Shown here: one piece after another, positions 27,369-45,560 of the stretch | Layout of the letters: each line of letters starts with the position of its first letter | How positions within the stretch are numbered: position 1 is the first letter of the stretch | Sequence record: PQ330092 | Strand: one strand, 5' to 3' | Origin: Escherichia phage JP4 | Length of the DNA stretch: 64,000 nt | The notes under the pieces: model-generated | The model's input: only the letters and a program-made list of their open reading frames with translations | Told to the model about the DNA's origin: nothing | The model's database searches: none | Translations under genes and position numbers: made by a program

Positions 27369-27388
27369 CCACCAGCACAAGCTGGTGG
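27369..27388. other. perfect hairpin whose two arms are Chi and its complement
   Basis: CCACCAGC-ACAA-GCTGGTGG. Confidence 0.8.
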
Positions 27389-27512
27389 ATTCCCTCTAAC
27401 AGTATTCAGTACTACATGATAGTCTTCATCCTCCTAGGGTAACATAGTGAGGGCTATGATGGCAGTACTGAATACTCCCTTTCAAAAGATAGATCTATGG
27501 TATAGTACTGAC

Positions 27513-27700
27513 GGATTTTGGGTGTAGTTACCCTGGATGGATTTTGGACGTAGATATGTCTAGCCCTCCAGAAGTCTGGAAGTAAAGATGGCTATCCATC
27601 TAGACGGCTAAACGGCTAGATTTCTGGATGGCTGGATGGCTAGACGTTTGGACGGCTAAACGGCTAGATGGTTACACGTCTGGAAGTATAGACGGCTAAA
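27513..27700. repeat. iteron-like short direct repeats
   Basis: GGATTTTGG x2; GACGGCTAAACGGCTAGAT at 27603 and 27651, partial at 27691; TCTGGAAGTA at 27575 and 27679; GGATGGCT x2. Confidence 0.8.
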
Positions 27701-27849
27701 TCAAAATTTTATTTTGTTTTTCCAATAGTTCCCCTACCGCGTGGGGATAGTTTCCCCGCAGTATCTGTAGTTAGATTTTTCTGAATCTGGAATCATTATC
27801 TTATAAACTGGGGGCAATGTCAACGACCTGGCCGGATATTTTTAAAAAT

Positions 27850-27914
27850 TTTTTCAGTACTGAATTTTGGGCGTAACTATGCACCCGGTGGGCTTGAGTC
27901 TTTCTCGACTTGAT
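27850..27914 (-). ncRNA. candidate box RNA (minus strand)
   Basis: Minus-strand promoter TTGCTT-16-TATAAT at 27921-27948; the transcript carries AGCCCACCGGGTGCATAGTTACGCCCAAAATTCA; no credible ORF. Confidence 0.3.
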
Positions 27915-28039
27915 GGAACTATTATACAGTACTGGAAAAATAAAGCAATACCCTGGATGAAAAAAGTTTTAATTAATTTGCTTGCCATCCTGGGCCGGAC
28001 TATGGTACTATATTTCAGTACTGAGAAAGTGCGTTTACC

Positions 28040-28129
28040 TGCTAGGGTGCGGGAGTGTATCCTTTTTTTATATCTTGAATTTTGGGCGTAATTCCGCACC
28101 CTCTGGGGTTTCCGCTTTCTCGCGTCTAT
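28040..28129 (-). ncRNA. candidate box RNA (minus strand), paralog of 27850..27914
   Basis: Minus-strand promoter TTGACT-16-TATAAT at 28136-28163; the transcript carries GGGTGCGGAATTACGCCCAAAATTCA and a 9-bp inverted repeat AGGGTGCGG/CCGCACCCT. Confidence 0.3.
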
Positions 28130-28315
28130 GTAGTAATTATACGCTTTTTCAGGATCAAGTCAATACCTAAAAACAAAATAATTGAAAATAATTTAACGCG
28201 TTTAAACGGCCTGTAAAGCCCTGGAATGATTGGAATGGTGCAAATGTATAGCTTATGTGTATTAATGCGTTAGAATGCGTCTGAGGCCGTTTTATGGGGT
28301 GTAGTAGTGATTTGG

Positions 28316-28408
28316 TTGATTCAGTACTGAATAATAGTACTCCTATATAGAAAGATAGTTCCCCTGGATTGATTCAGTACTGAATAATAGTACTCCTATA
28401 TAGAAAGA
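28316..28408. repeat. 40-bp exact direct repeat x2
   Basis: TTGATTCAGTACTGAATAATAGTACTCCTATATAGAAAGA at 28316-28355 and 28369-28408. Confidence 0.9.
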
Positions 28409-28439
28409 AAACTATTTTAAAAGTATTTGTAGAAAGTAC

Positions 28440-28499
28440 TTGCACCGTACTGATAAAAGCGTATAATGTTTTACATCGAGAGCGGGAACACTTCCCGCT
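28440..28499 (+). promoter_or_regulatory. early promoter with 5' hairpin, cassette 1 of 22
   Basis: TTGCAC-16-TATAAT, then AGCGGGAA-CAC-TTCCCGCT. Confidence 0.65.
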
Positions 28500-28522
28500 A
28501 CACATTAAGAGAGATTAAAACG

Positions 28523-28885
28523 ATGGCGACTCAAATCAATAAAATCATGCTTAACCTGGTAAACTTCCGCGAAGAGATGAAAGGTCTTCCGGCTGAAACT
28601 GTAAAAATTCACATTGCAGCTTATCGGGAACTTATTGCAATGTTGCCGCTTAAGCGTGAACAATACGCCGCTACTTTGATGCTTGATTCAATGATCCATA
28701 TAATGATCTCAAATGATTTAACGATGGTTTATCAGTACATGGGCGAAAATTTCGCGGTGTGTAGTAAGCCAGTACCAGGGATGGCAACTACTGAGGAATT
28801 GCACGGTTTAAATTTAAAGCAAGATGCATGGGATAATATGCCTCGTTTCCTGGTATGGGCTGACAGTGGCAAAATTTACAAATAA
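28523..28885 (+). CDS. hypothetical early protein (120 aa)
   Basis: Track ATG 28466 lies in the -10 (TATAATG); start moved to ATG 28523, downstream of the hairpin. Confidence 0.75.
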   Translation: MATQINKIMLNLVNFREEMKGLPAETVKIHIAAYRELIAMLPLKREQYAATLMLDSMIHIMISNDLTMVYQYMGENFAVCSKPVPGMATTEELHGLNLKQDAWDNMPRFLVWADSGKIYK

Positions 28886-28899
28886 GTTTAATAAAGTAC

Positions 28900-28958
28900 T
28901 TGCAAACTAAGTTTAAAAGCGTATAATGTTTTACATCAGGTGGGGAATAGTTCCCCAC
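28900..28958 (+). promoter_or_regulatory. early promoter with 5' hairpin, cassette 2
   Basis: TTGCAA-16-TATAAT, then GTGGGGAA-TAG-TTCCCCAC. Confidence 0.65.
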
Positions 28959-28977
28959 TATATAAGAGGATTAAAAA

Positions 28978-29217
28978 ATGGCTAAATCAAAAATGTTCTT
29001 AGGTCACAAAAACAAAACTCATTGGAATGTAAGCCTTTGGATTAATAACGATGAATCATTATACCGGTTGGCCCAGGACTTTATTAACGATAGCACTAAT
29101 CGCAATGATGCGGCCCGTCATATGATGTTATTTTTAGAACAGACTGGACAAGATAAAACACCGGACGGATTCAAATATAGCACTACTGCGATCCGTGCGG
29201 CGATGGTTGGAATGTAA
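28978..29217 (+). CDS. hypothetical early protein (79 aa)
   Basis: Track ORF; GAGGA SD; own cassette. Confidence 0.8.
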   Translation: MAKSKMFLGHKNKTHWNVSLWINNDESLYRLAQDFINDSTNRNDAARHMMLFLEQTGQDKTPDGFKYSTTAIRAAMVGM

Positions 29218-29305
29218 TAGAATAGAATTTATTTAAAGTACTATTGCACGCTGATAGTACTTTATAATAGTGTTTTATTCATACACCAACGATAAGGGCA
29301 ACAGC

Positions 29306-44147: not shown

Positions 44148-44208
44148 TTGCATTGTAGTTAGATTAACGTATAATGTTTTACATAGAGCGGGGGAATAGT
44201 TCTCCCGC
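44148..44208 (+). promoter_or_regulatory. early promoter with 5' hairpin, cassette 19
   Basis: TTGCAT-16-TATAAT, then GCGGGGGAA-TAG-TTCTCCCGC. Confidence 0.65.
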
Positions 44209-44226
44209 CAGTCCAGGAGATACACC

Positions 44227-44490
44227 ATGAACACTATCGAAATCACTATCAATGCACACGTATACGACAACGTAGTACTGCAAACTACTATGACCGCTAA
44301 TGATACCAGTACTTTGCGGAATACTGTTATTAGTGCCGTATGTGCTGCAATCGGTGATGTCGCCCTGGAAAATGCAAAACACGTAAACGATGGTTTCACT
44401 ATGTGCAAACGTGATAACGCAAAACATATCATCGTAGAAGGTTACGGCGGTGTAGAATATAATGTTTATATGAAAAAAGTACTTGCATAA
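44227..44490 (+). CDS. hypothetical early protein (87 aa)
   Basis: Track ORF; the C-terminal KKVLA* is encoded by the next cassette (AAAAAAGTACTTGCATAA). Confidence 0.8.
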   Translation: MNTIEITINAHVYDNVVLQTTMTANDTSTLRNTVISAVCAAIGDVALENAKHVNDGFTMCKRDNAKHIIVEGYGGVEYNVYMKKVLA

Positions 44491-44539
44491 TAACTAAAAC
44501 AAAGTATAATGTTTTGCATAGGGGGAGATATCCTCCCCC
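44483..44539 (+). promoter_or_regulatory. early promoter with 5' hairpin, cassette 20
   Basis: TTGCAT-16-TATAAT, then GGGGGAG-ATATC-CTCCCCC. Confidence 0.65.
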
Positions 44540-44557
44540 ACTAAAAGGAGTAATAAA

Positions 44558-44782
44558 ATGGCTAACTTTGATGAACTGATGCGGGAAGTAGCTAACCTGG
44601 CAGAAGAGAAGAAATCATTCGATTCTATCTATAACACCGCTCACCGTGATTCAGTACTGGCATGTAACCAGGATCAAAAAGATGAACTAATCGCCACCTA
44701 TCATGAAGCATGGAAGTACTACCGACAATGGGAGAAAGAAGAAAGAGAGTCTACCATTGACGGCCTCAATAATCTAATCTAA
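44558..44782 (+). CDS. hypothetical early protein (74 aa)
   Basis: Track ORF; AAGGAG SD. Confidence 0.8.
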   Translation: MANFDELMREVANLAEEKKSFDSIYNTAHRDSVLACNQDQKDELIATYHEAWKYYRQWEKEERESTIDGLNNLI

Positions 44783-44801
44783 AAGTTTTATTTCAGTACT
44801 A

Positions 44802-44830
44802 TTGACATAGCTTGATAGTACTGATGTAAT
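44802..44830 (+). promoter_or_regulatory. sigma70-type promoter (no hairpin)
   Basis: TTGACA-17-TGTAAT. Confidence 0.5.
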
Positions 44831-44858
44831 AACTTTACTAACTACAAGGGGAAACATA

Positions 44859-45116
44859 ATGGAACAGTTCACACAATATCGGGTAAATCCTCAAGCGATG
44901 GCCTACGTAGAAGACCATAAAACGTTACCAGTACTAACACCAATTAAAGGCCATATCTATCGTGCAATGTCGTGGTGTACGGCCCAGGATGGCTATAAAA
45001 CCGTAGCCGTTGGTATGTATTGCGGTAATGGTGAATGGTTTGATCCAAATAATCCGGTAGCCATTGACAGTACTGAAAAAATGAAATGGGCCGACTACAT
45101 CGAAGATATTTCATAA
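44859..45116 (+). CDS. hypothetical early protein (85 aa)
   Basis: Track ORF; GGGGA SD. Confidence 0.8.
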   Translation: MEQFTQYRVNPQAMAYVEDHKTLPVLTPIKGHIYRAMSWCTAQDGYKTVAVGMYCGNGEWFDPNNPVAIDSTEKMKWADYIEDIS

Positions 45117-45122
45117 AACTAT

Positions 45123-45183
45123 TTGACAGTACTAACCAGTAATGTATAATGTTTTACATAGAGCGGGGGAATAGTTCTCCCGC
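45123..45183 (+). promoter_or_regulatory. early promoter with 5' hairpin, cassette 21
   Basis: TTGACA-16-TATAAT, then GCGGGGGAA-TAG-TTCTCCCGC (same hairpin as cassette 19). Confidence 0.65.
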
Positions 45184-45205
45184 CAATAGTTTGGAGTAAA
45201 ATATT

Positions 45206-45406
45206 ATGTCTATCGCTCTCGCCCTGGTTGAAGTACTGAAAGAAGCTAAAGCCAACCTTATCGATGTACAGATTAAGGAATTGCAAAACGGCTTAATCGG
45301 CTGTACTTGTACCGCTGGCGGTGCGGCAGACTATCGAGAACACGAATCACTCGAATCACTGGTTCGGTATCTTACCATGATCGTTGATGATTGGAGAATC
45401 ATCTAA
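45206..45406 (+). CDS. hypothetical early protein (66 aa)
   Basis: Track ORF; GGAG SD. Confidence 0.8.
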   Translation: MSIALALVEVLKEAKANLIDVQIKELQNGLIGCTCTAGGAADYREHESLESLVRYLTMIVDDWRII

Positions 45407-45423
45407 CAAAAAAGAATAAAAAA

Positions 45424-45456
45424 AGGGATTGACTCCGGTCAGTCCCTTTGCTATTA
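45424..45456 (+). promoter_or_regulatory. terminator/promoter hybrid hairpin
   Basis: GGGATTGAC-TCCG-GTCAGTCCC then T3; TTGACT 45428-33, 17-bp spacer, TATTAT 45451-56. Confidence 0.65.
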
Positions 45457-45462
45457 TATACG

Positions 45463-45560
45463 CATAGACAAAAACTAGCCCACAGGGTGCATAGGTGTAT
45501 CTAAAATATATAGTTAATAACGGTGAGTAACTATCTGCTGGTGGAACTAAAACTATTAAT
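45463..45560 (+). ncRNA. candidate orphan box transcript
   Basis: Box TAGCCCACAGGGTGCATAGGTGTATCTAAA at 45477-503, Chi at 45536-43; no ORF. Confidence 0.35.

Follow-up and report, generated by a model that had tools for sequence, protein, structure and literature searches.

Chi octamers clustered in the direct terminal repeat of an Asteriusvirus jumbo phage and their probable relation to host RecBCD

Why would a jumbo phage carry, crowded into one repeated part of its genome, the Chi octamer of Escherichia coli? A 64,000-nucleotide stretch of Escherichia phage JP4 (sequence record PQ330092; hereafter the window, meaning the whole stretch analysed) contains an exact repeat whose 20,114-bp unit holds ten copies of GCTGGTGG, the Chi sequence. 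The RecBCD enzyme binds to free ends of duplex DNA and digests the molecule inward; once it encounters Chi from the 3' side, it spares the 3' strand and loads RecA; each site is recognised in 20-40% of encounters. A preliminary description of the window had interpreted the octamers as a strand-biased enrichment that would protect both ends of the unit against RecBCD. We find that the enrichment is real, specific to this octamer, and concentrated in the repeat unit, and that the array most likely tames RecBCD at an exposed right genome end.

The terminal repeat and its Chi octamers

By megablast, the window belongs to the genus Asteriusvirus, the E. coli jumbo phages of the 121Q/PBECO4 type, with 93-96% identity over alignable parts to genomes of 350-385 kb (121Q, PBECO4, G17, vB_EcoM_E9.1, fEgEco12, and vB_Ec-M-J), none of the matched records being identical to it. 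All of its close relatives are E. coli phages, isolated on E. coli, from which we infer the host of this one and which agrees with the enterobacterial host suggested before. The two copies of the repeat (26792-46905 and 46906-64000, the second cut by the end of the window) show 0 mismatches. The repeat boundaries correspond to position 1 of OQ718158.1 and PP886230.1 and to the record end of MK327931.1, and the ends of the unit fall exactly where the records of vB_Ec-M-J, E9.1, and G17 have theirs; in OQ718158.1, 'Direct Terminal Repeats' are annotated at 1-21525 (21,525 bp). Terminal repeats of ~20.7-21 kb have been found in relatives by PhageTerm and, in the case of fEgEco12, also by restriction digests (PMC13070987; PMC11895373). 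Because the repeat is exact and its boundaries match termini annotated or verified in relatives, the 20.1-kb unit is identified by comparison as the direct terminal repeat (DTR) of an Asteriusvirus. It contains ~49 small + strand open reading frames (ORFs), mostly belonging to PHROG families of unknown function and separated by spacers of 60-300 bp, as well as 11 perfect 12/12 sigma-70 promoters on the + strand (TTGACA-N16/17-TATAAT) and many terminators. In relatives, the genes just outside the DTR are tightly packed, in contrast with the spaced genes within it. This organisation of small + strand ORFs, sigma-70 promoters, and terminators marks the DTR as a predicted early region transcribed by the host RNA polymerase.

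Both strands of the window together hold 22 Chi, against 0.67 expected from dinucleotide shuffles (largest shuffle, 3). Each unit carries eight on the + strand (27381, 33212, 37252, 38715, 39983, 42331, 43737, and 45537 in the first copy) and two on the - strand (27369 and 33150), or 1 per 2.0 kb; the coordinates given earlier were right throughout except for the last + site, which had been placed at 45536. The same sites recur 20,114 bp further on in the second copy (47483 and 53264 on the - strand; 47495, 53326, 57366, 58829, 60097, 62445, and 63851 on the + strand), where the counterpart of 45537 falls past the end of the window. The 26.8 kb to the left of the repeat contain, as already described, no + strand Chi, and their only - strand copies (14814, 15072, and 15327) are Ala-Gly-Gly codons of a glycine-rich - strand ORF (14756-15493, 245 aa).

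Several controls indicate how specific this excess is. An order-3 Markov model predicts 0.30 copies per unit on the + strand and 0.10 on the - strand (Poisson P = 1e-9 and 0.004, respectively). On the + strand of the unit, 8/8 GCTGGTG and 8/8 CTGGTGG heptamers extend to a full Chi, and one-mismatch variants in the unit stay at chance level, with 0-2 copies each. Among the 168 words sharing the base composition of Chi, Chi has 8 copies on this strand, the next best 2, and the mean is 0.27, which amounts to a ~30-fold excess. When all octamers of the DTR are ranked, Chi comes 22nd, and the words above it belong to three other motif families: the palindrome TCAGTACTGA, the -10 region GTATAATGTTTTACATCA, and the -35 region AGTACTTGCA.

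Although intergenic DNA makes up 34% of the DTR, seven of the ten Chi are intergenic (binomial P = 0.02), the number reported in the preliminary description; the coding ones (38715, 42331, and 43737) lie in + strand ORFs and occupy two different reading frames. Since most sites are intergenic and the coding ones are read in two frames, codon usage does not explain them. A Shine-Dalgarno-like or other mRNA-level role of the intergenic sites was rejected, as the next promoter comes only after 39983 and 45537, neither of which is in a 5' leader. The sites were likewise rejected as copies of a single repeated element, given that their 45-nt flanks differ at all ten and show no extended consensus.

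The strand asymmetry calls for a different judgement. The DTR, like the other early regions compared below, has a G-rich + strand (GC skew ~+0.1 in the DTR), and from words of the same composition a fraction of 0.75-0.80 is expected on it, against 8/10 observed in the window and 23/26 across the three phage genera compared below, which is not significantly more. The bias described earlier therefore stands as a count (8:2) and not as an excess over composition; we dropped it as stand-alone evidence, the permutation control predicting an equal ratio from composition. The asymmetry is functionally large, yet it provides no independent evidence for a selected orientation.

Conservation in relatives and recurrence in other genera

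Conservation was followed in the DTR-homologous stretches of MJ, E9.1, G17, Turkey5, UE-S1, and 121Q, each of which has nine + strand and one or two - strand Chi. The eight + strand Chi of the window are orthologous and unchanged in all six wherever their position is covered (the Turkey5 stretch begins to the right of the first + site). Fully conserved background octamers amount to 46-49% across the first five relatives, at a per-base invariance of 0.86, so that the joint conservation of the sites has P ~0.002. Variable bases directly adjoin several of the intergenic octamers, namely in the loop between the two leftmost sites, in the four bases 3' of 45537, and in the three bases 5' of 39983. 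These two leftmost sites are the arms of a palindrome, CCACCAGC-N4-GCTGGTGG, which are invariant among the relatives around their variable loop; the - strand arm at 27369 is kept in MJ, E9.1, G17, UE-S1, and 121Q. The other - strand site, 33150, is mutated in three of the six relatives (CCACTAGC in G17 and UE-S1, CCGTCAGC in 121Q). The ninth + site of the relatives corresponds to a decayed Chi in the window (45314-45321, + strand, GCTGGCGG); it is a full Chi in five of them and absent from 121Q, which reads GCAAACGG at this place and has a private + strand Chi elsewhere, as does Turkey5. Such gain or loss of individual sites at a steady count indicates turnover of Chi within the genus. A search of IMG/VR for CCACCAGC-N4-GCTGGTGG returned 46 contigs, nearly all small and unrelated, 121Q being the sole relevant one; this number is presumably within ~2-fold of chance, by a rough unverified estimate.

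The count on both strands of a whole genome, proposed in the preliminary description as a check on the enrichment, left it intact in vB_Ec-M-J (complete, 378,573 bp, ~95% identical to the window). Each 21,525-bp DTR of this relative has 9 Chi on the + strand and 2 on the - strand, or 1 per 2.0 kb, whereas its unique 335.5 kb have 14 and 9, or 1 per 14.6 kb, making the DTR ~7.5 times denser. With one DTR copy counted, 6% of the genome accounts for 11 of its 34 Chi (binomial P = 3e-6). The unique region itself is ~2-fold over the Markov expectation for Chi. The density of the E. coli chromosome, 1 per 4.6 kb (PMC12315714), is exceeded more than twofold in the DTR, while the unique region of the relative stays well below it. 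Within the unique DNA of OQ718158.1, six + strand Chi lie in the 22 kb at 213.7-235.7 kb, denser than elsewhere; this segment lies inside a replication and recombination module (DNA polymerase, terminase, UvsX, UvsY, helicase, and primase), and the Klebsiella phage considered next has no counterpart of this group of sites.

Chi clusters also occur in two other genera. The Klebsiella jumbo phage OU509535.1 (347,546 bp), which resembles the DTR only in scattered, promoter-like stretches, has 16 + strand and 4 - strand Chi genome-wide, of which 9 and 1 lie within 21.7 kb (27.3-49.0 kb; P ~1e-7 for a stretch picked after seeing the data), their spacing narrowing to 1.2-1.6 kb near the right edge, where the GC content falls. 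The Yersinia phage fHe-Yen9-03 (Eneladusvirus) has 6 + strand and no - strand Chi over the initial 16.4 kb of the early region, and no more on the + strand up to 31 kb. Its record closes with the RCC1-like array also present ahead of the DTR in the window and, because this array precedes both, the two early regions are, by gene order, syntenic. Chi again exceeds its 168 permutations in both phages, with 9 copies against 2 in the Klebsiella phage and 6 against 2 in the Yersinia phage. The comparison of flanks with the window covered the Klebsiella phage; the flanks of its Chi are unrelated to those in the window, and these sites are thus non-orthologous to ours. In neither of these two genera, as sampled, is there a left-end - strand site comparable to 27369. 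The hosts of all three phage genera are, we assume, Enterobacterales sharing GCTGGTGG as Chi, and the clusters strongly suggest selection on the octamer itself. The Chi-rich early regions have a GC content of 35-37%, followed directly to the right by 26-29% (Klebsiella 27-49 kb; Yersinia 1-17 kb); the step is milder in the window phage, with 38.5% in the DTR and 35% in the unique genome.

These comparisons bear on two explanations that would dispense with RecBCD. One would see in the octamer a site for some other phage or host factor, such as an early transcription or termination regulator, or a signal for packaging or replication, and would put its identity with Chi down to coincidence. Some Chi do touch other elements (the palindrome at 27369-27388, a hairpin at 37252, and a box upstream of 39983 and 45537), and the DTR is rich in other over-represented motifs, for example CAGTACTG and promoter words. 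Against a dedicated binding site speak the missing extended consensus, the occurrence of the octamer in both coding and non-coding DNA (in two frames in the former), the failure of any same-composition word to behave like Chi, and the clusters of the exact octamer in three genera whose hosts presumably share it as Chi, with unrelated flanks in the Klebsiella phage. We consider this explanation improbable. Even less credit is due to the idea that the cluster has no function and results from base composition, codon or dipeptide usage, or the shared ancestry of a G-rich early region. The G-rich + strand with its skew, the strand ratio that tracks composition, and the three sites encoding Ala-Gly-Gly or Leu-Val are what one would expect from it; a ~30-fold excess of this single word over composition-matched ones, a majority of intergenic sites, octamers that stay invariant beside variable bases, and a separate Klebsiella cluster with unrelated flanks are not, and they already refute it in large part, leaving it very improbable.

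A probable role of Chi against RecBCD at the right genome end

A top-strand 5'-GCTGGTGG-3' acts on RecBCD entering from the right (PMC12315714), the rule from which the preliminary description had argued, and the + strand Chi of the DTR lie 1.36, 3.16, 4.57, 6.9, 8.2, 9.6, 13.7, and 19.5 kb from the right terminus. With functional Chi they share the exact sequence, the octamer of the host, the orientation for approach from the 3' side, and over-representation with conservation; they also lie near the packaged end in the active orientation, although this bias is not above the compositional expectation. The reading that we prefer, and hold to be moderately probable, is that the octamers are selected, functional Chi sites acting on RecBCD at the right end within the DTR, with RecA loading for recombination between the two DTR copies. 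Enzymes that load at this end would be converted within the DTR, ahead of unique sequence; at a recognition of 0.2-0.4 per site, 2-17% of the enzymes would pass all eight Chi. The DNA lost there would be redundant, the left DTR copy holding the identical sequence, and the RecA-coated 3' tail would consist of DTR sequence able to invade the other copy in the same or a sister genome, leading to a circle or concatemer or to primed rightward replication, co-directional with transcription. The tail generated at Chi, being repeat sequence, would have its homologous partner at the opposite genome end.

Phages of this group build no phage nucleus around their DNA (PMC11895373), and their genome ends would for that reason be exposed. 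The right end would be the exposed one if it is the first injected or if terminase cutting leaves it free; by analogy with lambda, both could apply, which would imply left-to-right packaging and right-end-first injection. The protection of the left end claimed in the preliminary description fares less well. The single conserved Chi of opposite orientation, 577 bp from that end, may give partial cover and is indeed kept in the genus, but it is one site, forms a palindrome arm, and has no counterpart in the two other genera, and its companion at 33150 is mutated in three of six relatives. This genus-specific site, part of a hairpin, could owe its presence to the palindrome and not to a protective role at the left end.

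Whether protection is the whole purpose is harder to judge. The array might only switch off RecBCD, keeping the genome and its early genes intact until phage proteins take over, all recombination being left to UvsX and UvsY and none to host RecA. Recombinase and mediator are phage-encoded, the Chi lie in the region expressed first, and their positions suit an end buffer. In RecBCD, Chi recognition and RecA loading are nevertheless coupled, as is established by its enzymology; the DTR offers a ready homologous partner; and P1 has the same arrangement for RecA/RecBCD-dependent cyclisation (bioRxiv 10.1101/2021.07.08.451572). Sequence alone does not separate this possibility, which we think unlikely, from the preferred reading with RecA loading; by analogy, RecA loading and DTR-to-DTR recombination appear at least as likely as protection to be the selected outcome.

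A bolder version of the preferred reading, possible though doubtful, takes the DTR as a sacrificial, Chi-armed buffer that handles RecBCD without an inhibitor, host RecBCD and RecA starting circularisation or recombination-dependent replication before UvsX is produced. A nucleus-less jumbo phage would expose a free end during the long injection of ~370 kb, and RecBCD would chew redundant DNA only. If true, a buffer that does not inhibit RecBCD would avoid the host guards that sense such inhibition (for example retron Ec48 and P2 Old), and one would predict right-end-first injection and host-specific Chi arrays in the long DTRs of other phage families.

The distance of 1.4 kb between the end and the first Chi would also fit a role in limiting other outcomes of RecBCD action, for instance the supply of fragments to Cas1-Cas2, so that the acquisition of CRISPR spacers would be confined to the outer 1-2 kb. 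Levy et al. are said to have found in 2015 that Chi bounds spacer acquisition in E. coli type I-E. This would be a by-product of the interaction between Chi and RecBCD and not a separate mechanism, active adaptation is absent in many hosts of these phages, and no sequence feature favours it specifically; as the main role of the array it is highly improbable.

Several points weigh against functional Chi sites serving RecBCD at the right end. A phage-encoded recombination module is not expected in Chi-rich phages of the P1 or LLS kind, and the Asteriusvirus relative departs from this, its gene products including a member of the RecA family (PF00154; score 54 bits, cut-off 27), UvsY (PF11056), and a phosphoesterase resembling Mre11/SbcD. 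The phage family thus appears to have its own UvsX, UvsY, and Mre11/SbcD-like nuclease, and in lambdoid phages a phage recombination system accompanies few Chi sites (PMC12315714). An inhibitor may exist among the ~49 uncharacterised DTR proteins and would make Chi needless after the first minutes; no RecBCD inhibitor or end protector was recognised among the 49 DTR ORFs compared with PHROGs, a scan of the DTR only for a class of small, fast-evolving proteins. If the left end enters first, as in T5, most Chi are in the inactive orientation for the end that is exposed earliest. The strand asymmetry (8:2 in the unit, 23:3 across three genera) is the compositional expectation and lends no support to selection on orientation, and the rise in density toward the right edge is suggestive and non-significant (mean normalised position ~0.62 for 9 sites). 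The genome-wide densities come from vB_Ec-M-J and one Klebsiella phage in place of the window's own genome, and the link of these phages to RecBCD is drawn from sequence alone.

The closest parallels come from other phages of E. coli. P1, like P7 and D6, has ~50 Chi, concentrated around pac and the terminal redundancy; at 1 per 1.9 kb their density is over twice that of E. coli (PMC12315714; bioRxiv 10.1101/2021.07.08.451572). As in the DTR, Chi lies where the ends of the packaged DNA fall, and RecBCD/RecA recombination between terminal repeats has been proposed. P1 is temperate, whereas the present phage is a virulent myovirus of 350-380 kb that has a fixed DTR of 20 kb, sites confined to it in nearly one orientation, and UvsX and UvsY of its own. 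The lambdoid phage LLS, of the 'no Rec module, high Chi' class (Zheng et al. 2025), has 23 Chi, 20 of the 23 active from the right end and clustered rightward, at 1 per 1.9 kb (PMC12315714). It resembles the DTR in density, right-end clustering, and orientation; it differs as a 43-kb cos phage without recombinase or RecBCD inhibitor whose growth is helped by RecBCD, while the jumbo phages encode a RecA-family recombinase, UvsY, and an SbcCD-like nuclease, and their Chi density is low genome-wide.

The octamer and its orientation logic are also those of the E. coli chromosome and of rolling-circle plasmids. Chromosomal Chi are mostly in genes and co-oriented with replication, whereas those of the DTR, at 1 per 2 kb, are mostly intergenic; on plasmids, according to Dabert et al. 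1992 as cited in bioRxiv 10.1101/2021.07.08.451572, Chi shields the linear tails from RecBCD. Chi is over-represented in T5-like genomes, and for phages that package from concatemers a role of Chi in such end recombination has been proposed generally (PMC3784561). Like the window phage, T5 is virulent and has a long exact terminal repeat with takeover (pre-early) genes transcribed by the host RNA polymerase. Its Chi excess is genome-wide and that of the DTR focused on the repeat; with only 2 Chi in its 10.2-kb terminal repeat, about the E. coli average, we rejected T5 as a precedent for a repeat-focused array. The terminal redundancy of SPO1 is a 'host-takeover module', that is, a long repeat of small early genes with strong host-type promoters and terminators, much like the DTR; its host Bacillus has AddAB and a different Chi of 5 nt, and we know of no Chi array reported in this repeat. 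Chi differs by host, being GCTGGTGG in enterics, AGCGG in Bacillus, GAAGCGG in Staphylococcus aureus, and GCTGGCGC in Pseudomonas; GCTAGTGG is an altered form of GCTGGTGG and is not expected to act as Chi.

Full-text literature searches found no report of Chi in Asteriusvirus or in any jumbo-phage DTR, and no paper testing Asteriusvirus on rec mutants; the study of fEgEco12 speculates on DTR-mediated circularisation and makes no mention of Chi or RecBCD (PMC13070987). The octamer, and presumably the enzyme logic, are known, and what is new is their appearance in virulent jumbo phages, in a 20-kb early-gene repeat, and side by side with a phage recombination system. Terminal, oriented Chi in P1 and lambdoid phages have been read as a borrowing of host RecBCD, which would here extend to virulent jumbo phages of Enterobacterales. 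The array beside a full phage recombination system contradicts the simple rule that absence of a Rec module means high Chi, and it suggests a role for very long terminal repeats as redundant, Chi-armed end buffers. The question bears on how DNA is protected in jumbo phages without a phage nucleus, of which isolated examples exist (Sharanji, fEgEco12, and G17).

Individual sites and other features of the window

Seen from left to right, the first two Chi (27369-27376, - strand, in the orientation for entry from the left; 27381-27388, + strand, intergenic) form, as described before, the arms of a perfect hairpin with an 8-bp stem and a 4-nt loop, CCACCAGC-ACAA-GCTGGTGG. They belong to a leader of ~1.7 kb at the left end of the DTR (26792-28465) without convincing ORF, which also contains a perfect consensus promoter (27157-27184) and CAGTACTG hairpins and may be where the terminase recognises the DNA or where replication signals lie. 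The poorly conserved 33150-33157 (- strand, left-entry orientation) and 33212-33219 (+) are both intergenic, the latter downstream of a terminator (33104-33125) and with flanks that vary among relatives. The intergenic site at 37252-37259 (+) overlaps the 3' arm of a terminator-like hairpin, AGCCCAC...GTGGGCT. Three + strand sites are coding: 38715-38722 encodes Ala-Gly-Gly in ORF 38622-38810, which matches phrog_33079; 42331-42338 encodes Ser-Leu-Val-Glu in ORF 42293-42535, at whose orthologous place relatives annotate a coding sequence; and 43737-43744 encodes Ala-Gly-Gly in ORF 43680-43952, which matches phrog_8099. The intergenic + strand sites 39983-39990 and 45537-45544, the latter nearest the right end and 1,361 bp inside it, follow, at 61 and 88 nt downstream, the copies at 39895 and 45422, respectively, of a hairpin/promoter-like box, in line with their earlier placement after a conserved box; the first stands between the box (39895-39922) and a promoter at 40138-40166, and the second between the box (45422-45449) and a promoter at 45570-45598.

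This box is a conserved 38-nt sequence, AAAGGGATTGACTCCGGTCAGTCCCTTTGCTATTATAT, present at 39895-39932, 43164-43201, and 45422-45459, with a variant at 35875. It forms a hairpin with a 12-bp stem and has -35-like and -10-like hexamers in its arms and tail, and it may act as terminator and promoter in one or as a promoter under regulation. The palindrome CAGTACTG, the core of TCAGTACTGA, is the most over-represented octamer of the DTR; its 20.1 kb contain 33 copies, where 4.1 (order-3) or 0.23 (order-1) would be expected. There are 65 copies in the early region of the Klebsiella phage and 20 in the Yersinia one; elsewhere in these genomes its frequency is ~5 per 10 kb, which is likewise far above chance. 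In the window, two copies (27314-27347) form a hairpin with a 10-bp stem 22 nt upstream of the double-Chi palindrome. The motif could be an operator, a part of the promoter architecture, or a protein-binding site.

The named PHROGs matches among the 49 DTR ORFs are limited to a DksA-like protein, an acetyltransferase, and a weak ligase label. An origin of the DTR from the host was rejected, megablast against 5,426 complete E. coli genomes having returned no match. At 46905/46906 two DTR copies adjoin in head-to-tail order, and what precedes them is unique right-end DNA, an arrangement that one record of a linear virion genome cannot give; the layout of the window would reflect either a wrapped linear record or a concatemer-like assembly. 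Further left, a paralogous array on the - strand (8000-22000, for example ORFs 13542-14702 and 15566-16729), annotated in relatives as RCC1-like ('regulator of chromosome condensation'), is interrupted by the glycine-rich ORF 14756-15493 that bears the three - strand Chi matches. Within the DTR, a segment of ~190 bp (43947-44141; ORF 43949-44140) is 70-88% identical to a small gene found in many unrelated coliphages of 135-150 kb (Vequintavirus-like) and also matches records labelled Campylobacter phage, a distribution that suggests horizontal exchange of this small early gene.

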